Virus record (IMG/VR): IMGVR_UViG_3300022181_000007
Location: 1-25,785 of that record
Direction: 5' to 3' (one strand)
Length of the DNA stretch: 25,785 nt
From: a virus
Taxonomy: Duplodnaviria > Caudoviricetes
Each line of letters starts with the position of its first letter. Position 1 is the first letter of the stretch. The notes beneath the pieces are model-generated. The model ran no database searches. It was not told the DNA's origin and was given only the letters and a program-made list of their open reading frames with translations. A program made the translations under genes and the position numbers. Shown here in pieces: positions 172-25,785 of this stretch.

Positions 172-193
172 AGCTTCTCGTCAACGATGACAC

Positions 194-267
194 GGGGGCG
201 TAGCGAAGCTGGTTATCGCGCTGGCCTGTCAAGCCGGAGATCGCGGGTTCAAGCCCCGTCGCTCCCG
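194..267 (+). tRNA. tRNA-Asp(GTC)
   Basis: Acceptor stem GGGGGCG/CGCTCCC, anticodon arm CTGGC-CT-GTC-AA-GCCGG, T-loop GTTCAAG, discriminator G. CCA is not encoded. Confidence 0.97.
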
Positions 268-332
268 ATCCAGCCCGCAGGGCATGTGCGCAGGCGCGTA
301 TCTGTGGGGTTCCGCTTACGAGCGGATCAAAA

Positions 333-361: not shown

Positions 362-502
362 AGTGCAAGAGCGTGGATGGCATTTATGCTGTTTTATAGC
401 AGGGACTGTCGGGCCGCTTAGACTGCTGGACTGCTAGTGCGCGGTGCTGATGTTTTTGCACGGGCGAATTTCGCGATTCGCCGTGTCGCTGTCGATCCAT
501 TT

Positions 503-575
503 CGGGCTGTAGCGCAGGGGCTAGCGCGCTTGGTTCGGGACCAAGATGTCGGAGGTTCAAATCCTCTCAGCCCGA
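503..575 (+). tRNA. tRNA-Pro(CGG), probable prophage attachment site
   Basis: Acceptor stem CGGGCTG/CAGCCCG, anticodon arm CTTGG-TT-CGG-GA-CCAAG, T-loop GTTCAAAT. It lies directly beside the integrase. Confidence 0.97.
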
Positions 576-611
576 GAAAATAAAGCCGTTCATTCGAGCG
601 GCTTTATTTTC
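576..611 (+). terminator. Terminator hairpin after tRNA-Pro
   Basis: Inverted repeat GAAAATAAAGCCG...CGGCTTTATTTTC. Confidence 0.75.
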
Positions 612-2080: not shown

Positions 2081-2146
2081 TGCTTATCTACCTGGAGTAG
2101 AAGGAGCATCAAGGGCCTTCCTTAGCAGGAAGTGCCCTTTGCTTTT
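2081..2146 (+). ncRNA. Putative small structured RNA convergent on the DUF3800 operon
   Basis: It has its own promoter. The 5' hairpin pairs 2081-85/2104-08 and 2087-91/2097-2101. The 3' hairpin AAGGGC-CTTCCT-tagc-AGGAAG-t-GCCCTT is followed by TGCTTTT. Confidence 0.6.
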
Positions 2147-2619
2147 ATATAATTATTATAATCTTTTATTAGATCATTTCTCAGATTGGGATACTCTATA
2201 GGATAAGCTGTCCATAATATGATATAATTATTGCGACGTTCTAATACAACCAAATAATCCTCATTTTTATACCAAAGTAATATTCTTTTTTTCTTTTTTA
2301 TATTTTTTTCAAAACATAAAATTTCATTATTATTGCTGTTTGCTATTATTGGAGATATCCATCGTATATATTTTATGCGGTTAGGATTAGGATCTTTGAA
2401 ATTGTTATTTTTTTTATCTGTTCCTGATATAATATGCCAAAATGTATTTTCTTTACCATCATTACCAATACCTTGAGCTAACTTGATTGGTGTCGCATGG
2501 AAATAAGGTTTATTATCAATAAAATCTTTTCTGAAAATACGATATGCCTCCATTATTAAACGATTTGGGTCATAATCAACATCTTCTAATGTCAATAATG
2601 GTGGAAGAAAATTAAGCAT
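2122..2619 (-). CDS. Hypothetical protein, possible BECR/RelE-like RNase fold; partner of the DUF3800 protein
   Basis: AT-rich. Contains FWHIIS, R..YIRWI.PII and a C-terminal YLVVLERR..YIILWTAY beta-meander. ATG 2619 overlaps the upstream stop codon (ORF track starts at 2631). Confidence 0.55.
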   Translation of the reverse strand: MLNFLPPLLTLEDVDYDPNRLIMEAYRIFRKDFIDNKPYFHATPIKLAQGIGNDGKENTFWHIISGTDKKNNNFKDPNPNRIKYIRWISPIIANSNNNEILCFEKNIKKKKRILLWYKNEDYLVVLERRNNYIILWTAYPIEYPNLRNDLIKDYNNYIKAKGTSC

Positions 2620-3343
2620 TATGATCCTCATTCTCAGGATCCCAAATAAAAATATTAAATTTACTTTCTCTATATAGAGTTGATCGCGTTAAAGAATATC
2701 CTGAGCGCTGTTTGATCCTTTCAATTATTTTATTCTTACCAGCATTTGTATTTAAATCTCTTGCATTATATGACAATGCCCCAACAATAATATCTGTTAA
2801 CTGTATTAATTCAACATGGTGTGATTTTACTAATTGAATTGATTCTATTATTGAATGATTGAAATCATACATATTATTGCAGAGTACATCATGTAGCTTT
2901 GTTATTCTTTCTGCTCCTTGTATATCTTTATAATCTAAAAAAATATTATATTTATAATTTGGATCAATGATTGGCGTCAGCAATCTAAAAAACATTTTAT
3001 AATACCATTCATCATGTGTTTGATTGAACTTTTGATGATTTAATATACTTTTATCTGGAATAATTAATCCACGAAAATGCAGATCATCATCATCAAAAAA
3101 ATAATCAATTATATCTAAATAGGGCTGGTAATGATTAGATGATATTTTGCTCCATTTTATTTCACTTTCATGGCGTAACCCATATTTACCTTTAAATTCT
3201 ATCAATCTTCTCGTAATTTCTTTTATTTTTTTCTTCTCACACCAAATCGCACCTAGAGTCATTGCTTTTTGATGATCATGTTCTAGATGGCAACTCTCAT
3301 CACAATAGATATTAATGTAATCATCCATATACAAAATTCTCAT
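2612..3343 (-). CDS. DUF3800 family protein (RNase H-like fold)
   Basis: N-terminal IYCDESCHL, an EIKWSK motif, a central IFLDYK and a C-terminal S...ELIQLTDIIVGA. Confidence 0.85.
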   Translation of the reverse strand: MRILYMDDYINIYCDESCHLEHDHQKAMTLGAIWCEKKKIKEITRRLIEFKGKYGLRHESEIKWSKISSNHYQPYLDIIDYFFDDDDLHFRGLIIPDKSILNHQKFNQTHDEWYYKMFFRLLTPIIDPNYKYNIFLDYKDIQGAERITKLHDVLCNNMYDFNHSIIESIQLVKSHHVELIQLTDIIVGALSYNARDLNTNAGKNKIIERIKQRSGYSLTRSTLYRESKFNIFIWDPENEDHNA

Positions 3344-3584: not shown

Positions 3585-4334
3585 CTAGATAATTTGCACC
3601 TTTACCTCTGCCCTATCCAACATTCGTTTCAAAATTTCCCCCGCGATCATGGCATCATAGAGAGCGCCATGCGCGTCATCTTCATTAAATGGCACCCCAT
3701 AGAACCGTGCAGTTTCCTCGAGCGATGGCCATTTCCAATCATTTTTGCTATCCATCCATTCAACACAGACAACATCTGCATTCGATTTCATGGTATCTAG
3801 TTTGCGGCGGTTTTTCAAAAATGGGACAAAGCCGACATCGAAGGAAACATTATGCCCCGCTATCAGACGAACACCTTCGCAAAACTCTTTGAATGCTAGA
3901 TAATCATCAAGGAAGTGTTCTGGATAGGTTGCATCGCCGCGGAGCTCAGCAATCTTTTCTTTGGTCAATCCATTCACCATGATCGCTCTTTCATTGAATG
4001 GTTCTTTTGGATAGTAGTAGCGTTCAAACCTGGCTTTCTCTTTCAGTTTTTCATAAGGATCCCAGGAATATCTGATTGCACCAATAGAAAGTAGACTTGA
4101 TTCATCTGGATAAAATCCGTTCGTTTCAGTATCAAAGACAATCACATCAGTTAATTCAATGCCTTCGAGCCATTCTTTGATTTCTCGTACAACCATATCC
4201 CGGTGAGGATGCACCTTTTGTGGTGGCATAGCCCGTGGATATATCGGCTCTCGTATGTCTTTTCGTGCCGGTTTTTTGGATCTTATAATCAAATAGATGA
4301 TCAAGCCTACGATTAGCAATGTAAAAATTATCAT
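3585..4334 (-). CDS. DEDDh 3'-5' exonuclease (DnaQ-like) with an N-terminal membrane anchor
   Basis: ExoI FDTETNG, ExoII GHNVSFD and ExoIII HGALYDA. The N-terminus MIIFTLLIVGLIIYLII is hydrophobic and followed by basic residues. Confidence 0.9.
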   Translation of the reverse strand: MIIFTLLIVGLIIYLIIRSKKPARKDIREPIYPRAMPPQKVHPHRDMVVREIKEWLEGIELTDVIVFDTETNGFYPDESSLLSIGAIRYSWDPYEKLKEKARFERYYYPKEPFNERAIMVNGLTKEKIAELRGDATYPEHFLDDYLAFKEFCEGVRLIAGHNVSFDVGFVPFLKNRRKLDTMKSNADVVCVEWMDSKNDWKWPSLEETARFYGVPFNEDDAHGALYDAMIAGEILKRMLDRAEVKVQII

Positions 4335-7249: not shown

Positions 7250-7705
7250 ATGGGATTGCTGGAAAGAATTACAACAAAGCTAAAAGATAGCAATGAGCAA
7301 GCTCACATTCGCGTTGGCCGCGAGTGGATGACAATGGCTGAATACCGGCAGCGCTATCTCAAAAAGCCAGAGACTGAACAGCTTGAATTGTTCCCAAATC
7401 TTCCAACAACTGCCATCAGCAGTTCCATCGATGAGCAATTCCTTCAGTTCCATGAGGCAAACCCACACGTATATCGCAATTTGATACGGCTTGCGAGGGA
7501 AGCAAAATCTCAGGGCTGTAATAAGATCGGCATGAAGTTCCTTTTTGAGCGCTTGCGTTGGGAATATATGGTGAAAACGAAACATTCTGCCAGCGAATAC
7601 GCGATCAACAATAATTTCACTAGCCGCTATGCGCGGATGATTATGGACGATTGTCCAGACTTGCAGGGATTTTTTGAAACGCGGCGGCTGAGGGAAAGGG
7701 TCTAA
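7250..7705 (+). CDS. Phage hypothetical protein, possibly DNA-binding
   Basis: RBS AGGAGGT. The pattern F..FH..NPHVY...ERLRWE...NNNF...YAR...FFETR is one I recall from phage proteins. Confidence 0.75.
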   Translation: MGLLERITTKLKDSNEQAHIRVGREWMTMAEYRQRYLKKPETEQLELFPNLPTTAISSSIDEQFLQFHEANPHVYRNLIRLAREAKSQGCNKIGMKFLFERLRWEYMVKTKHSASEYAINNNFTSRYARMIMDDCPDLQGFFETRRLRERV

Positions 7706-10044: not shown

Positions 10045-10223
10045 GCCTATCAAAAATTTACGCCGATATAGAATTTGAAAGAGCGAATAATTTATCATGG
10101 TCCGAGAATGCATTATCAAAAGACAAAAGTAGTTTCTATACGCGCGGCGAGCTTATTCATCAGGCGGCAATAATCGTGCAAGCCATCAATGAACTAGATA
10201 ACTGCAATTTGGAGGGGAAATGA
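10041..10223 (+). CDS. Small protein resembling a truncated MazG-like helical NTP-pyrophosphatase
   Basis: I..ER...W...RGELIHQAAIIVQAINELD pattern, with ATGA overlaps at both ends. Confidence 0.45.
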   Translation: MSLSKIYADIEFERANNLSWSENALSKDKSSFYTRGELIHQAAIIVQAINELDNCNLEGK

Positions 10224-10396
10224 GTATCGGTAAAGACTTGGACGAGATCGCGGCGGAACTCATGCGTCTGGATTATGGCGAGCTGCATATTGTGGTGCGC
10301 GGCGGAGAGATTGTGAGCTATTCAATTATCAGATCCAAGCTGGTACTAAAAAGAAACGAAAAAGAGCATAAGCAATTACAAGAAAAACAATATTAG
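10220..10396 (+). CDS. DUF2292/YezD-like small protein (58 aa, not in the ORF track)
   Basis: MSIGKDLDEIAAELMRLDYGELHIVVRGGEIVSYSIIRSK...; helix then L.YG.L.IVV.GG.IV; GGAGG RBS. Confidence 0.6.
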   Translation: MSIGKDLDEIAAELMRLDYGELHIVVRGGEIVSYSIIRSKLVLKRNEKEHKQLQEKQY

Positions 10397-10405
10397 GAGG
10401 AGAAT

Positions 10406-11635
10406 ATGAAAGATATTTTATTGACAATCTTTGCAGTATTGAGATTTATTTATAATCATAGCAAAATTACTGGAAAACGAAACGGGTCAGAATTTTTTGC
10501 TGATCGTATTGTTCAAGCTGCCACAGAAAAAACATTGCTTGCTTTTGCTGAACGCCTATCAAAACTTGTTGATGCAGATATCGGTAGTATTTGGGAATCT
10601 CGAGGTGTTGAATTTTTGAGAATATCAGGTACTCAAGATGCGGCAAAAGTATACCAATGGATAAGGCTTTATCCCAGAATTGTTGCAATGATCTCTGCTC
10701 TTCCAAGAATGGAGCAAGTTGAAGAAGCAATAGAATCTATCGAAATAGAATCCGTCAAAGAAGATGGATGTGCCATACCTCAGGGCAAATATGAAATTCC
10801 TATCGAAATTACAACGCTTTCGCCGCTTGCTCATGGAGCAGATATAAAAGCTGGGAATGCGACATTATTTCGCAGAATGCAGGTTTTAAGCGATACTGGC
10901 GCAACGCTATCGCTGCCTTTCTATTCTGGGAATGCTTTGCGAGGCCAGATGCGCGATCTTCTTGCAGATGATTTTCTCCGAGCAATCGATATTAAGCCTA
11001 GCAGAACAAATCCGCCTATTGCTTTATGGTTTTTCCATACAATATATGCCGGTGGCGCCCTTGAAGAAAACAGCGATGCTGCTAAAGCATTCGGGAAATT
11101 GCTTGGTACTAATGGAGCAATCAAAGCAGAAGGAATCTATCAGTTTCGCGACACGCTTCCAATGATTTCCGCACTTGGGTGCTCCATTGGGAATCGCATT
11201 ATCGAAGGCAGAGCAAATTTTGGCGATTTTCGTCCATGTTGTTATGAGTGGTCCAATGGAAATATTAAGGTATCAGAATTAATGACATGGGAATTTTTAA
11301 CCAGGCGGGAAGATTTTGAAGGCCATGAAGATGGAGATAATAAATCCATGATCGCAACCATTGAATGCATAAAACCTGGTGTCGTTTTGCAGGGCGGAAT
11401 AGATATTCGAGGGCATGCTTCAGAACTCGAGCGATCTGTTATTGGGAAAGGGCTTTCACTGCTTGCAGATCGCGGATTCATAGGAGCTTATTCAAGGCAA
11501 GGTTTTGGTAAAGTAAGGATCGAGATCGAAAATGCTCCTGATGGCAAGCTGTATGAAAACTATCTTGCTGAAAATAAGAATAAGATCATTGACTATCTTG
11601 AATCGCTCGGTGCCATATGCATGCCATCAATTTAA
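10406..11635 (+). CDS. csf2: Type IV Cas7 (Csf2) with an N-terminal Cas11-like helical domain
   Basis: The RAMP core starts at residue ~129: ITTLSPLAHG, AGNATLFRR, PFYSGNALRGQMRD, GGAL, PMISALG, EFLTRRED and G-loop IGAYSRQGFGKV. Residues 1-~110 are helical. Confidence 0.88.
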   Translation: MKDILLTIFAVLRFIYNHSKITGKRNGSEFFADRIVQAATEKTLLAFAERLSKLVDADIGSIWESRGVEFLRISGTQDAAKVYQWIRLYPRIVAMISALPRMEQVEEAIESIEIESVKEDGCAIPQGKYEIPIEITTLSPLAHGADIKAGNATLFRRMQVLSDTGATLSLPFYSGNALRGQMRDLLADDFLRAIDIKPSRTNPPIALWFFHTIYAGGALEENSDAAKAFGKLLGTNGAIKAEGIYQFRDTLPMISALGCSIGNRIIEGRANFGDFRPCCYEWSNGNIKVSELMTWEFLTRREDFEGHEDGDNKSMIATIECIKPGVVLQGGIDIRGHASELERSVIGKGLSLLADRGFIGAYSRQGFGKVRIEIENAPDGKLYENYLAENKNKIIDYLESLGAICMPSI

Positions 11636-12363
11636 TTGCGCAATCGGTTAGGACTCTAGCGCCGGCATTGCCATGCGATCCTATAGAAGCGACATGCGCA
11701 GTAACCGGACAAGTTTGTCCTTGCCTCCCACGACGAGAAGTTCTCGGTGATAGTTTTACAAACATTGATTGTCTTCGCGCTCCGGAAAGCGAATTTGTTG
11801 GCGTCGATGTCTATATTGCTTGGTTCTTTGGATATAAGACAACTGAGGATAAAAAACGCCTGAAATGCCCGGAGCGCATGGCTAGCTGGATATGTGATGG
11901 CAATGAATTCCGCGAATTATCGCGTATTGAAATACGCGAGATGGTACTAAATGGGATTCCATATAAACAATGGGCTGCATACGTTACCACAAGCTATAAA
12001 AAACATGGGAGCTTATGGGCGAGAGTAAACATAGGTCCGAGAGGTATTTGGCGCTTTGAAATGATTGACGCCGATTGCCGAGATGAAAATAAGACGAGGG
12101 AATATTGGAATAGAATGAACGCTGCGGTTAACGCAGGAATCGGCAGGGGCATTATTGAAACGCTTGATATGCCACCCTATTTGACCATGAAGGTTGGAAT
12201 GAAAACATGGATTGAATATGAGAAATGGGCAAAACCAATATATCAGAGCGGATTATACCAGTTTCTTGCATATCTATTGCCGAGCGCAGAGGAGAGAATA
12301 AATGCGAAATCTGGAATTGGAAATGGAGGCATATCGAAAAGCAAACAGCTATCTTTATTCTAA
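11617..12363 (+). CDS. csf1: Type IV Cas8-like large subunit (Csf1)
   Basis: CAVTG...SFTNIDCLRAPES..V N-terminal pattern and a TTSYKKH motif, adjacent to csf2. Confidence 0.75.
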   Translation: MHAINLIAQSVRTLAPALPCDPIEATCAVTGQVCPCLPRREVLGDSFTNIDCLRAPESEFVGVDVYIAWFFGYKTTEDKKRLKCPERMASWICDGNEFRELSRIEIREMVLNGIPYKQWAAYVTTSYKKHGSLWARVNIGPRGIWRFEMIDADCRDENKTREYWNRMNAAVNAGIGRGIIETLDMPPYLTMKVGMKTWIEYEKWAKPIYQSGLYQFLAYLLPSAEERINAKSGIGNGGISKSKQLSLF

Positions 12364-13042
12364 ACATATTCGAAATGCAGAGGAAATCATTAGAGTTGCG
12401 TTATTGCAATGTAAAAATCCAGCGATAGCATTATCTGGAGGCAAGGATTCTGTTGCAATGGCAGGGTTGGTCTGCAAATTTTGCAGTCCTAAAATAATCT
12501 GGAATGATTCCGGGCTTGAATTACCAGAAAGTAAAAGCATCATCTATGAAATTGCAGATAGATTTGGGCTCGAGATAATTGTTGCGAAAGGATGTGCAAT
12601 AGAAGAAGCCGAAGCTATAGGCCGCGGAGAATTATCGCGATATGACAAAAAAGTAATTAATAGTATTGATACAATAATAAATCCAGTTAGGAAAGCACTT
12701 ATTGAGCATGGAATCGATCTTGAGTTTGTAGGGCTTAGGAAAAAAGAAAGCATAAAGCGGCGGATGTTATTATCTCAATATGGGCCTATCCACTATTCAA
12801 AAAAATGGGGCATAAAAATTGCCTGGCCAATGATGAATTGGGATGGCAGGGATTGCCTCGCATATATATGTGAAAATAATTTACCGATTCATCCAGCATA
12901 TTTAATGGCTTCAGATCCTGCGATGGCACGAGTTTCATGGGCGTTTGATACAGCTCGCGAGGCGCCTGCTGAAACTGAAGTAGTGAGAAGAAATTATCCC
13001 GAAATCTATAGAAAATTAAGAGAGGCAGGCTTATGTCAATAA
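12302..13042 (+). CDS. CysH-like (PAPS reductase family, PP-loop) protein of type IV-B loci
   Basis: SGGKDS, DSGLE.PE, GLRKKES..RR and PMMNW...D...YI..NNLPIHPAY. Confidence 0.9.
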   Translation: MRNLELEMEAYRKANSYLYSKHIRNAEEIIRVALLQCKNPAIALSGGKDSVAMAGLVCKFCSPKIIWNDSGLELPESKSIIYEIADRFGLEIIVAKGCAIEEAEAIGRGELSRYDKKVINSIDTIINPVRKALIEHGIDLEFVGLRKKESIKRRMLLSQYGPIHYSKKWGIKIAWPMMNWDGRDCLAYICENNLPIHPAYLMASDPAMARVSWAFDTAREAPAETEVVRRNYPEIYRKLREAGLCQ

Positions 13043-13728
13043 ACAATCTTAAGATAACATTTTTTCTCGATGGCACTGGCGTCTATTATGATCCATATGA
13101 GCCGATACATCTTGATGCTCTTATGGCGTGGGCCCTCATGCCATTTCATCGATCGAAGGGATCACAAGCTCCATCAAGAGATGAGGAACCAATTGATGTG
13201 CCTCTGCCGCTTGATAAATGGCAGCTTGCAGGAACATGGGGATGGAAAGCAAGCGCACTATTTCCAGAAGGAATTACTGCAGAAAGCATGCAATATTGGC
13301 GTAAAAGATTTCGCCAATCTCGTATTGAAATTACAAGCGGTAGCCCTAATCTGCAAAATGGTATATATAGAGAATACAATACTCCATTACCATTATTACT
13401 TTGCCATAGGATGGTTGCTTATGCAGTCGGAGATCGTGGGCGTGTTGAACAGGTATTGCGTAAGCATATCAAGTATCTTGGTAAGAAAAATGCCTATGGT
13501 AAAGGCCATGTCCTTGGAGTAACTGTTGAGATTGTAAATTACGATTGGTCGATGTATCGAGATGGCAAGCCTATGCGTTTTTTGCCCGACACAACCGGGA
13601 CCAGAATGGTAAGGCCACGGCCACCATATTGGAACAATTGCGGGCGTGTCTTATGTGGAGAGATCCCTATGAGGCAGATCTCATTTCTTCCAACCAATCA
13701 ACAAGAGCAAATTGCTGACCTGGTGTGA
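13033..13728 (+). CDS. csf3: Type IV Cas5 (Csf3)
   Basis: LKITF.L...PIHLDALMAWA, W.W.AS, G-rich loop LGKKNAYGKGHV and RPRPPYW. Confidence 0.85.
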   Translation: MSINNLKITFFLDGTGVYYDPYEPIHLDALMAWALMPFHRSKGSQAPSRDEEPIDVPLPLDKWQLAGTWGWKASALFPEGITAESMQYWRKRFRQSRIEITSGSPNLQNGIYREYNTPLPLLLCHRMVAYAVGDRGRVEQVLRKHIKYLGKKNAYGKGHVLGVTVEIVNYDWSMYRDGKPMRFLPDTTGTRMVRPRPPYWNNCGRVLCGEIPMRQISFLPTNQQEQIADLV

Positions 13729-14068
13729 GATTCCTCAATTTTTCAATAAGAGCGGCGCGGTCCACACCGAAAAACTCAAATTGACTTGGATCTTCATCCT
13801 CTGTATCGGCAAGCACAGCGCCAATAATTGTCTGATAACTATAGATAGTTGAAAGCGCATTATTAAGCAGAAGATTGATCTCATTTTCTTCAAATAGATC
13901 GCGTAGTCTGCGCCTTTCGGCGCGAACCAGTTCGTCATATCTGCCCAATATTTCAGTCAATGTCGCCGACTGGCCATATTCGCCCTCATCAGTATTAAGC
14001 CGCTCAGCATATTTCTTGAGAAGCGCCTCAAGATTTTTATTGAGATATACAGTTGTTCGTCTGCTCAT
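13667..14068 (-). CDS. Putative RHH-type transcriptional regulator
   Basis: N-terminal RTTVYL beta-strand plus helices (S.TL.EIL.RY); GGGAG RBS. Confidence 0.6.
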   Translation of the reverse strand: MSRRTTVYLNKNLEALLKKYAERLNTDEGEYGQSATLTEILGRYDELVRAERRRLRDLFEENEINLLLNNALSTIYSYQTIIGAVLADTEDEDPSQFEFFGVDRAALIEKLRNLTPGQQFALVDWLEEMRSAS

Positions 14069-14133
14069 TTAATTCTCCCTATGATTCTTAAATTTCATAA
14101 AGCAGCAGTTTCTTCCCATTTTAAACCTCCCAA

Positions 14134-14160
14134 CCCTTCGGCAACTTTATCGCCGAAGGG
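14134..14160 (-). other. Intercistronic hairpin
   Basis: Minus strand CCCTTCGGCGA-taaag-TTGCCGAAGGG, followed by GGGAGG rather than a U-tract. Confidence 0.6.
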
Positions 14161-14169
14161 CTATAATAT

Positions 14170-14697
14170 CTATAAATTAAAAGATTCTGGCAAATAGATT
14201 ATTGTTTTTGCCGGTCTATAGTTGCCGCTTTTCCACCATTTCGTTGTTCGAATGCCTGGGAAAAATTTGCCACTTTTTGTTTCAAAACCCCATGGCTCAT
14301 GCTTTATAACTGGCTCATCTATTTTATCATAATATGCTTCAGTGCATGATTTATATCCAGCCTTACGTGCAAGCGCATTAAGCTTCCGCAGGCTCTCATT
14401 AGAAAGTTTGGAAAGATCAATCTTGCTCTGATTGTCTGGGCAATAGACTTCAATACTATAGAGGGTAGGTATGCCATCGCCCCATCTGGTTGATCCAACT
14501 TGCACCGAGCAGCGGCATTTGGCAACTACGCCATTTCCAAGGTCATAATCAGCAGATTCATCTAGGCGATTCTTCAGCGCGATATCCATTCCATTACCAC
14601 TGCAATCGGAAGGAAGAACATGATAGGTTTTCCCTATCTCGATCTTTCCAGCAACATAAAGTTGCCGGAGATTTTCTGCCATTTGCTCTGTCTTCAT
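14170..14697 (-). CDS. Hypothetical protein
   Basis: 175-aa ORF with an AAGGAG RBS and its own promoter. Confidence 0.7.
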   Translation of the reverse strand: MKTEQMAENLRQLYVAGKIEIGKTYHVLPSDCSGNGMDIALKNRLDESADYDLGNGVVAKCRCSVQVGSTRWGDGIPTLYSIEVYCPDNQSKIDLSKLSNESLRKLNALARKAGYKSCTEAYYDKIDEPVIKHEPWGFETKSGKFFPGIRTTKWWKSGNYRPAKTIIYLPESFNL

Positions 14698-24023: not shown

Positions 24024-25785
24024 TGTTGAAGATTTGAAAATAATCCTCCGTGCTGAAGTCGATAAGGCAATAGCTGATCTCAAAAGAGCCAGCCGAGAGG
24101 GGAAAAATGCGGAAAAGGACTGGCAATCCATCGCTGATACATTTCAGAAGAATATTCAGCATAGCCTCTCATTAAAGAATGCTTTTTCTCAACTTACAAT
24201 GCAGATTGCAGGAGGGTTGGCAATATATGACCTTGCAGCGAAGGGAATTCGAGCAATTGGACAATTTGCAGCTGATAGTATAAGGGAATATTCAGAAGCT
24301 GCTGAAGCTCATGCTCGTCTAGCAGCGCAAATCAAGGCTACCGGCGGAGCTGCTGGATTCACCGCAGCACAACTTGAAGATATGGCTTCGAGGCTACAGG
24401 GTTCTACCAGAATCGAAGCTGAAGAAATCAATAAAGCGCAAAGTGCTCTGTTGAAATTCACAAGCATTACCGGCGAACAATTTGCCAAAGCAACCGAGTT
24501 GTCGCTCGATCTCGCTGCGGTATTAGGTGGCGATGTATCCGGAGCAGCTCAAACGTTGGGGAAAGCGCTTGAAGATCCCATATCTGGCATGAGCTCATTG
24601 AGGCGCGCAGGTGTTGTACTGTCTGAAGGCCAAGAACAGCTTGCTCGATCTTTTGCTGAATCAGGCAATACCGCTAAAGCTCAAGAAATCATTTTAAAGG
24701 CATTGCAAGATAGAATTGGCGGCGTTGCTGCCGCAGTAGGTAAAGAAGATCCTGCTGGCATGAAAAGGCTTCAGCTGGCAATAAAGGATGTGAAAGAGGA
24801 AATTGGCGAGCTATTAGCCAAGAATATGAAGCCATTCCTTGATGCCCTGGCAACCGACATCGAAAATTTTAGAAAGCGTCTGGCAAATAGCAAGACAGAT
24901 GCAGCTGCAGTTGTACAGGCCGTCAAGTTTGGAGACTTAATTGATGTTGGCGATGTATCTGGTATTCGGCAAGCTGTCCAGAATCTCAGTGGCAAAGTTG
25001 ATAAAGAAATTGTAAAAGCCTGGATAGAAGAAGCAAAGAAAAGAAATCCTCTTGCAACGCAGGCTCAAGCTGCAGCGATCCGTGCTGCTGAAGAAGAACT
25101 TGCAAAAATGCCTGCGCTACAAGTGGCGGGAGCATCTGGATCAGCAAATAATGATGCCGATATAAAAGCGCAAGAGCATATTAAAAATGTAACAGAAGAA
25201 TTAAATAAAAATATTCAGGCTATTAAATTAAGAGCGTCTGCGCTTGGGCAGGAAGCATCATCGCAGGAACTGCTTACTCAATATCTTAATGCCTATGTGA
25301 AGCTCATTCAGAATTCAGATGGTCTGGTGACAGAGAATAATCCAGCAGCAAAACTGCTAAAAATCCAAATACAAGCGCTTGTAAATGGACAGAAAGAGTT
25401 GAGTCAAGCCGAAGCTCTTGCTACATACCAGATTGAGAAAGCCGGCGAGATCGAGGCTGCCCGGTACAACGCGGCATATGCCTACTGGAAAGCCAAACAA
25501 GACGCCACCAAAGCAGCTGCTGAGCAGCAGGAGAAGGAAGCGCAGGCACTGGCCGAATACCAGATGGAGAAAGCCGGCGAGATCGAGGCTGCCCGGTACA
25601 ATGCTGCATATGAGTACTGGAAAGCACAGCAGGACGCTGCAAAGGCAGCGGCCGAGCAGCAGGAGAAGGAAGCACAGGCACTGGCCGAATACCAGATTGA
25701 GAAAGCCGGCGAGATCGAGGCTGCCCGGTACAATGCTGCATATGAGTACTGGAAAGCACAGCAGGACGCTGCAAAGGCAGCGGCC
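24016..25785 (+). CDS. Tape measure protein (partial; not in the ORF track because no stop lies in the window)
   Basis: MADVEDLKIILRAEVDKA..., Ala-rich helical sequence, LGKALEDP..G...LRRAGV; follows the chaperones. Confidence 0.92.
   Translation, partial: MADVEDLKIILRAEVDKAIADLKRASREGKNAEKDWQSIADTFQKNIQHSLSLKNAFSQLTMQIAGGLAIYDLAAKGIRAIGQFAADSIREYSEAAEAHARLAAQIKATGGAAGFTAAQLEDMASRLQGSTRIEAEEINKAQSALLKFTSITGEQFAKATELSLDLAAVLGGDVSGAAQTLGKALEDPISGMSSLRRAGVVLSEGQEQLARSFAESGNTAKAQEIILKALQDRIGGVAAAVGKEDPAGMKRLQLAIKDVKEEIGELLAKNMKPFLDALATDIENFRKRLANSKTDAAAVVQAVKFGDLIDVGDVSGIRQAVQNLSGKVDKEIVKAWIEEAKKRNPLATQAQAAAIRAAEEELAKMPALQVAGASGSANNDADIKAQEHIKNVTEELNKNIQAIKLRASALGQEASSQELLTQYLNAYVKLIQNSDGLVTENNPAAKLLKIQIQALVNGQKELSQAEALATYQIEKAGEIEAARYNAAYAYWKAKQDATKAAAEQQEKEAQALAEYQMEKAGEIEAARYNAAYEYWKAQQDAAKAAAEQQEKEAQALAEYQIEKAGEIEAARYNAAYEYWKAQQDAAKAAA
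25426..25785 (+). repeat. 132-bp (44-aa) tandem repeat inside the tape measure gene
   Basis: Units begin at 25426, 25558 and 25690: YQIEKAGEIEAARYNAAYxYWKAxQDAxKAAAEQQEKEAQALAE. Confidence 0.95.

Follow-up and report, generated by a model that had tools for sequence, protein, structure and literature searches.

A natural Cas11-Csf2 fusion in a mostly phage-borne variant of CRISPR-Cas type IV-B

The window analysed here is a stretch of 25,785 nucleotides of viral DNA (Caudoviricetes), and nearly all of it is taken up by a temperate phage (Table 1). The phage genes lie in the order integrase (beside two tRNA genes), cI-like repressor, RusA, replisome organiser and a type IV-B effector operon, followed by HNH, terminase, portal, protease, capsid and tape measure genes, the last of which is cut by the contig end. 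The two tRNA genes beside the integrase are the likely attachment site. Several further features of this phage have been recorded: a candidate two-gene defence system, PDC-M04A/B (2122-3343, minus strand; PADLOC E 4e-93 and 9e-42), which adjoins the integrase in a low-GC stretch; a membrane-anchored-looking DEDDh exonuclease in the immunity region (3585-4334, minus strand); two reverse ORFs that separate the operon from the packaging genes (13667-14697, minus strand), the first with a weak match to the PA0613 family; and 132-nt repeats within the tape measure gene (25406-25784).

The operon consists of a Cas11-Csf2 fusion gene, csf1, a cysH-like gene, whose true start may be 12326, and csf3, the product of which also matches TIGR03116 (E 4e-24, below that family's cut-off). 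As originally noted, there is no separate cas11 gene: the neighbours of the fusion are these three genes on the 3' side and, directly 5', a 58-aa DUF2292-like ORF (10220-10396; Pfam E 0.007, below cut-off).

Table 1. Coordinates of the main features of the window
Feature	Position	Strand	Basis or remark
tRNA-Asp	193-268		ARAGORN and Rfam
tRNA-Pro	502-576		ARAGORN and Rfam
Temperate phage around the operon, cut by contig end	622..25785	.	Pfam/PHROGs
Cas11-Csf2 fusion gene	10406..11635	+	single 409-aa open frame without stop
Cas11 (small subunit) domain, fusion residues 1-112	10406..10741	+	VIA-align, profile, PADLOC, hhalign
Fixed-length linker, residues about 111-128	10736..10789	+	length and G121/A123 conservation; block pLDDT 78-94
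Csf2 (Cas7) RAMP backbone domain, residues 129-409	10790..11635	+	PADLOC Csf2_0_IV, VIA, Foldseek
Csf1 (Cas8-like large subunit), tail ends QLSLF	11617..12363	+	PADLOC typeIV_Cas8 E 6e-6; predicted sliding-clamp-binding motif
CysH-like PP-loop enzyme (SGGKDS), exchangeable slot	12302..13042	+	Pfam PAPS_reduct (PF01507) E 3e-18
Csf3 (Cas5)	13033..13728	+	PADLOC Csf3_0_IV E 1.5e-34

The fusion gene has an AGGAGG ribosome-binding site immediately 5' of its ATG, and its linker contains no in-frame start codon in the window. The PADLOC profile Csf2_0_IV matches residues 129-401 (E 3e-47), which bears out the predicted start of the RAMP core near residue 129, and the stretch preceding it was rightly described as helical, residues 2-110 being predicted all-helical. 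The AlphaFold model of the whole chain reaches a pLDDT of 90.7 and a pTM of 0.85, so that the two domains are predicted to stand in a fixed arrangement. A missed stop or an indel near 10700-10790 is ruled out at the level of assembled contigs, since those of runs X4 (spanning 10338-11915), X9 (10200-11237) and X5 (10675-11118) each cross this junction with 0 differences and 0 gaps; X4 and X9 belong to two studies apart from the possible source studies of the window, and X5 to the study of a possible source.

The identity of the N-terminal domain, proposed to be a Cas11, was approached by several methods. The AlphaFold model of residues 1-112 (pLDDT 93.6) was compared by VIA-align with 48,161 PDB representatives; rank 1 was 7jhy_h of the IV-B complex (Z 7.1, rmsd 3.3, 100 residues aligned), a Z which for a helical bundle is within the range that the tool calls common and is not decisive alone, and rank 2 was 8fcj_J of a type I-B Cascade (Z 5.5), the following row having Z 4.7. 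We take both chains to be Cas11 subunits on the basis of their lengths (143 and 109), the scan giving entry titles only. Foldseek, run with the same domain against the PDB, listed no match at E <=0.001, 7JHY being absent from the list. Moreover, a profile of the family matches 11fs_N (Cas11c) with E 2.4e-4 and 3.6e-4, and PADLOC Cas11_0_IV, which matches the single sequence of the window weakly (residues 12-73, E 0.0018), recognizes 33 of 45 aligned N-domains at E <=0.05, the best at 2e-6. In hhalign, the N-domain profile matched, at 92.4%, that of the separate ORFs lying upstream of csf2 in 11 unfused loci. As controls, 26 families taken from these loci reached 0.54% at most; they are weak ones because many are antisense ORFs. 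A direct HMM search of the unfused loci with the fused N-domain gave E values of 0.1-5, with ORFs in the cas11 position as five of the top six.

Residues 1-110 of the fusion are, therefore, a Cas11. The opposite reading, that the fusion is an artefact of a missed stop or indel or that its N-terminal domain is unrelated to Cas11, could draw on the negative Foldseek result and on the weak single-sequence PADLOC match; it is already refuted by the independent contigs that bridge the junction, by more than 100 full-length homologues, and by the agreement of structure, profile and profile-profile methods on Cas11. The Cas11-Csf2 fusion of the window is natural and lies in one frame.

Regarding the Csf2 domain, VIA aligned it with 7jhy_a over 214 residues (Z 17.8, rmsd 3.0) and placed it as close to IV-A Cas7 (Z 17-18) as to IV-B, while its best PDB profile match is the IV-C Cas7c, and its match to TIGR03115 lies below the family cut-off. 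The only match of the whole model among viral structures in Foldseek was a RAMP protein. In the Csf2 motif G-N-A-T-x-F-R-R the Asn is invariant, and Asp146 is kept in 113 of 115 homologues. Asp42 of the Mycobacterium sp. JS623 Csf2 has been described as a putative catalytic residue (PMC7937560); the profile alignment contains no counterpart of it in the fused Csf2 and, given this absence together with the invariant Asn, RNase activity of the fused protein appears doubtful.

The fusion is a family trait, as had been anticipated. Among the 120 best of 449 homologues, 119 align over 92-100% of the query with 48-83% identity, the remaining one being a truncated copy of the fusion gene of the window. 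Both domains lie in a single ORF in 132 of 138 loci (the window's own, L060, left out), a count to be read with the manner of retrieval in mind, since the loci were found by peptide patterns lying inside the Csf2 domain only and derived from the fused clade, with the best 80 of 123 kept from the metagenome scan; the set is redundant and, at 95% identity, comes down to 98 fused rows, that of the window among them. The remainder comprises three loci cut by the contig start, one locus without Csf2, one with a frame change (L040) and one, L048, with an unrelated-looking N-terminal extension. A Csf3-based scan of viral contigs gained no new contig. The segment between the domains, described originally as an acidic linker, is indeed acidic in the window; across homologues it is no generic acidic spacer, as its length is 18-21 aa in each of the 115 proteins aligned and G121 and A123 are kept in 108 of 115 each. 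Furthermore, pN in the Cas11 domain is 0.08-0.17 against a pS of 0.70-0.90 (two close relatives); both domains of the fusion are under purifying selection.

Candidates for a split state were considered and for the most part dismissed. L040 is not a natural split, since its frame is broken at a C homopolymer and no new start is present. The short N-domain matches that were read (6 + 12) run into the linker or Csf2, have out-of-frame ends or stop at the domain end; they look like fragments, and two of the short matches, P0130 and P0135, are indistinguishable from contig-end cuts. A search for stand-alone Csf2, restricted to proteins of 122-389 residues, provided 39 short matches for reading, of which 17 carry N-domain sequence, 19 start in the last helix, in the linker or within Csf2, and three are stand-alone proteins (29-32% identity). 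One protein, P0167 (58% identity), begins at the Csf2 start and is a candidate true split. A conserved internal restart for Csf2 was likewise rejected, a Met being found in the linker stretch of 35 of 115 homologues and not in that of the window. In L048 (5659-7242) a distant Csf2 (25%) carries a long, helical-looking N-terminal extension, with a csf1-like ORF upstream; this is a candidate for a second, independent fusion, whose N-terminal part matches neither profile and whose tree position is uncertain.

The fused Csf2 domains form a single clade, with support of 100/98 in a careful tree of 50 rows (35 of the 98 fused rows) and of 99 in a quick tree of 110 rows, both trees containing fused and unfused IV-B-like rows only, without IV-A or IV-C. 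The unfused relatives were sampled thinly, as 11 of the 38 plasmid or phage records matching the Csf2 domain. In all 11 a separate ORF of 131-181 residues lies directly 5' of csf2, in accordance with the expectation that IV-B loci usually encode a stand-alone cas11 by csf2, and in nine the cas11 stop overlaps the csf2 start. The accessory set of these loci includes CysH in 9/11 and a DUF3440 protein with a ParB-type one in 2/11; a Cas6 is annotated right after csf2 in two unfused plasmid loci (L145:4366-5109 and L151:4653-5444). The simplest account of the fusion would be that the clade's ancestor once lost the stop separating its overlapping cas11 and csf2 genes, csf1 now lying downstream. 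With one clade, its own gene order and the fusion in most of the loci, the proposal of a distinct IV-B variant is upheld.

The functional consequence that had been drawn from the fusion, a fixed 1:1 ratio of Cas11 to Cas7, follows by construction, but hardly represents a change. In the unfused IV-B complex of solved structure, six copies of Csf2 accompany five of Cas11 (PMC7937560), so that the fusion shifts the stoichiometry by one subunit and, considering also the overlap of the unfused genes, hard-wires a near-equimolar arrangement already present. The step from n:n-1 to n:n that the fusion brings is probably of little consequence.

The usual order in the fused clade is fusion, csf1, slot and csf3, where the slot is a position occupied by exchangeable enzymes. 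In 69 non-redundant fused operons reaching csf3, it holds CysH alone (45/69), CysH with a PAPS-reductase/DUF3440 protein (8/69), a radical SAM enzyme without CysH (7/69) or PAPS-reductase/DUF3440 without CysH (5/69); nothing was recognized in 4/69, all four cut within 0-556 nt on one side. None of the seven radical SAM operons contains CysH, six of them having more than 5 kb of downstream DNA, and the radical SAM state requires at least six changes on the tree. The DUF3440 protein comes mostly with a ParB-domain partner, the pair being presumably IbrA/IbrB. Between the window and its relative L062, the fusion, Csf1 and Csf3 are 79%, 71% and 84% identical, and CysH 33%; more generally, CysH is at most 37% identical in 26 of 36 pairs, which are not independent, with fusions at least 62% identical. 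CysH is thus often replaced between close relatives, and its PP-loop S-x-G-K-x-S is invariant across an alignment of 38 proteins. In combining a conserved scaffold with rapidly exchanged enzymes of nucleotide chemistry, the operons recall phage DNA-modification cassettes, and the frequent swaps of the helper enzyme suggest a complex that may work with nucleic-acid-modifying enzymes. For CysH, AMPylation of RNP-bound nucleic acid has been proposed earlier (PMC8175902). Other arrangements recorded around the slot include a DNA methylase and a GNAT acetyltransferase within it (L007:10613-14081), genes for a ParB-domain protein and a TET-associated glycosyltransferase directly 3' of csf3 (L001:11528-13157), and two csf3 copies in the order fusion-csf3-cysH-csf1-csf3 (L028 and L034).

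A second conspicuous trait concerns Csf1, a protein of 248 aa in the window with no HD match. The C-terminal pentapeptide of this protein agrees with the consensus of bacterial clamp-binding motifs, QL[S/D]LF (PMC12309361), and is encoded inside the csf1/cysH overlap. A QxxLF-type C-terminal motif occurs in 12 of 83 non-redundant Csf1 and in 7 of 660 other ORFs (p 5e-8, uncorrected for kinship). Tails of at least 22 aa are present in 20 of 75 Csf1 and 17 of these 20 end in a clamp-type motif, against a mean of 0.5 and a maximum of 5 in 2000 shuffles. The other 55 lack a long tail, which indicates that clamp docking is not essential. Their distribution on the tree is a scattered one, with 17 changes for 19 rows; long tails are found in 0 of 14 loci with the ParB-type pair and in 20 of 61 others (p 0.015, a test chosen after seeing the data). 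There is no enrichment of the motif at the C-termini of the fusion, Csf3 or CysH. An internal QLELF pentapeptide in an early gene of the window (7250-7705) is a second possible clamp-binding motif. Three unfused systems have a stand-alone Cas11 with a clamp-type end (L144:3047-3442, L145:3088-3498 and L149:2953-3423), namely QLELF in Rhodovastum and, in two archaea, ends that we take to be PIP-box-like; with such peptides on unfused Cas11, the motif may move between subunits.

Searches for a guide were negative. In the window neither the repeat search nor Rfam revealed a CRISPR array, and Rfam found no family apart from the two tRNAs. Repeats were noted in 8 of 98 loci, tandem or coding-like in seven, and array-like repeats were absent from 97 of the 98. 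The remaining case, L105, has four degenerate repeats of ~35 nt at about 570-830, 300 nt upstream of the fusion, two of them separated by unique stretches of 38-39 nt; this is a possible mini-array. No non-coding element was shared beyond close relatives upstream (87 operons) or downstream (59) of the operon, and scans for promoters and terminators gave results at chance level.

Some data bear on the operon in nature. Two RNA runs touch only csf3 within the operon, and two others are merely presumed to be RNA, with no silent-stretch control. A 2047-nt contig of run X9 represents a near-identical prophage with deletions at window positions 11238-11746 and 11803-13387, which remove most of the operon, and the contig matches a chimeric protein of 340 aa (P0011). 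It reflects either natural decay or an assembly error; unless the latter applies, the operon is dispensable in that prophage. As for the genomic setting, a viral collection supplied 48 of the loci by design. Of 18 longer loci drawn from the two remaining collections, with 52 of 95 candidate neighbour proteins scanned, 12 have named phage-type neighbours, three only unnamed phage families and two no phage-type neighbours, while L057 looks chromosomal. Many loci have genes for phage replication, a DNA methylase or packaging in their vicinity. Records with a fused locus are assigned to Bacteroidota, Proteobacteria, Chloroflexi, Desulfobacterota and others, and are mostly bins, in which phage contigs are possibly misplaced.

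By homology to 7JHY, the fusion product is predicted to polymerise on RNA with backbone and belly in one chain, and an RNA filament of the fusion, capped by Csf3 and Csf1, is highly probable. For the role of this filament, the best explanation is a tentative one, held at somewhat below even chances: an array-less, RNA-bound scaffold may cooperate with the enzyme of the slot in modifying nucleic acid, probably phage DNA under replication. The enzyme, whether CysH-like adenylating, radical SAM or PAPS-reductase/ParB, would act on nucleic acid at or near the complex and, in about a quarter of the clade including the window, the Csf1 tail would tether the complex to the host sliding clamp at the fork. 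The exchange of slot enzymes for other nucleotide-chemistry enzymes, with a PP-loop preserved in CysH, the clamp-type endings of the long Csf1 tails and the phage replication, methylase and packaging genes in the neighbourhood all speak for such a modification. However, most Csf1 have no clamp tail and the motif of the window sits in the cysH overlap, and the rapid exchange of CysH speaks against a dedicated contact surface between this enzyme and the complex; the slot could be a hot spot of commonly regulated accessory genes. The near-absence of guides, arrays or conserved non-coding elements near the 98 operons (one degenerate repeat cluster excepted) and the loss of most of the operon in the X9 prophage, if genuine, count against it as well. 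A bolder picture, in which a widespread phage clade would use a three-gene RNA-protein machine (Cas11-Csf2, Csf1 and Csf3) to ride the host sliding clamp and deliver interchangeable base-modifying enzymes to new phage DNA for counter-defence, is speculative and on balance rather unlikely; if true, it would amount to a CRISPR-derived DNA-modification system serving counter-defence.

The absence of arrays and guides would be accommodated by an RNA sponge or anti-CRISPR, in which the filament would protect the phage by sequestering crRNAs of the host or other guide RNAs, and the slot enzymes would be unrelated cargo. The RNA on which the unfused IV-B complex assembles is heterogeneous, and a sponge has already been proposed in print (PMC7937560, PMC8175902); moreover, a backbone-plus-belly protein encoded by one gene would fit a high-copy sponge. 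This reading is nevertheless rather unlikely, given that an enzyme is retained within or next to the slot in 65 of 69 operons, where it is exchanged for others and not lost, and that a sponge has no need of a clamp motif. A guide supplied in trans, either a host crRNA or an unrecognized phage RNA, could instead direct DNA binding and an IV-A-like silencing of genes of the host or of rival elements, in which case the slot enzyme would be an effector or would generate a signal. All Cascade-like subunits, including Csf1 and Csf3, are present and conserved, the Csf2 fold is as near to IV-A Cas7 as to IV-B and the L105 repeats could be cited in its favour, but no helicase, nuclease or Cas6 was found among the window ORFs scanned and the flanks of the operons share no non-coding element; such RNA-guided binding is judged unlikely. 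Finally, the fusion could have a function of its own if the presence of a Cas11 on each Csf2 without exception, even on the terminal one, altered filament length, capping or partner binding. Its retention across the loci, the fixed-length linker with two conserved residues and the accompanying change of gene order agree with this. It is very unlikely, however, since the unfused complex is nearly equimolar already and its genes overlap in most loci, unfused systems carry the same accessory set, and a single origin explains the persistence of the fusion without any new function. Modification of nucleic acid together with the slot enzyme is hence retained as the preferred, if tentative, explanation.

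The function of type IV-B systems is a standing question in the field (PMC8175902; PMC12669027, supplement). As an architectural novelty the fusion by itself is modest; the clues to mechanism lie in the enzyme slot and the clamp motif. The fused clade offers a smaller IV-B test system, with three structural genes and no need to balance Cas11 against Csf2, and about 100 non-redundant natural examples in which helper enzymes are swapped on an almost unchanged core. It also explains a gap in annotation, as fused operons seem to be without cas11 and their Csf2 scores under the NCBI cut-off. The literature search returned no description of a Cas11-Csf2 fusion, an earlier mention being possible in the supplements of type IV surveys, which were outside its scope, nor of a clamp motif in type IV-B.

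Compared with known systems, the window contains the IV-B features Csf2, Cas11 (as a domain), Csf1, Csf3 and a cysH-like PP-loop gene, while the usual separate cas11 in the order csf1-cas11-csf2-csf3 is found neither in the window nor in the clade. With the Mycobacterium sp. JS623 complex (PDB 7JHY; PMC7937560) it shares four subunit types, a CysH-like PP-loop partner, the lack of an array, the location on a mobile element and, among the window ORFs scanned, the lack of adaptation genes; both fusion domains match 7JHY chains. It differs from JS623-type loci in that Cas11 and Csf2 are one polypeptide and in its order cas11-csf2/csf1/slot/csf3. With respect to plasmid IV-B systems, the fused Csf2 is 23-33% identical to theirs, the fused clade is mostly phage-borne and the Csf1 of the window bears a clamp-type tail. 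The systems of the Bathyarchaeia Fuxiviridae (PMC10848311) and of a Methanoperedens virus (10.1101/2023.08.02.551345) share with the window the viral location, a CysH-like gene and a full effector set, but their cas11 and csf2 are described as separate, the words "fusion" and "fused" being absent from both main texts, and the Fuxivirus system, unlike the window, has a mini-array.

Other subtypes are more distant. No Cas6, DinG or adaptation gene was found among 32 ORFs (Pfam) and 11 sequences (PADLOC) of the window, whose contig ends inside the prophage; the IV-A hallmarks DinG, Cas6 and array are thus missing in the window, and Cas11 is present. The IV-C system of Pyrococcus and Thermococcus (PDB 11FS, with Cas7c and Cas11c; PMC13676074) provides the top PDB sequence-profile matches for both domains; it is described as chromosomal, unfused and crRNA-using, with a Cas10-like large subunit bearing an HD nuclease, whereas the window has no such subunit, its large subunit being the short Csf1, and has CysH. 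In the III-E and III-I Cas7-11 proteins (PMC12669027), Cas7 and Cas11 are naturally joined, as in the window. These are, however, single-protein, crRNA-using and RNA-cleaving effectors with three or four Cas7 and one Cas11, an architecture absent here, where a 409-aa protein of type IV ancestry combines one Cas11 with one type IV RAMP domain as a predicted repeating unit. The Csf3-Csf1 fusion of IV-E (10.1101/780106) is a precedent for a subunit fusion that marks a type IV clade; it involves other subunits, and DinG and an array are present. In all the genes and domains compared, the system of the window belongs to IV-B, gene separation and order excepted, and it is the fusion and the reordering of its genes that make it a variant of that subtype.
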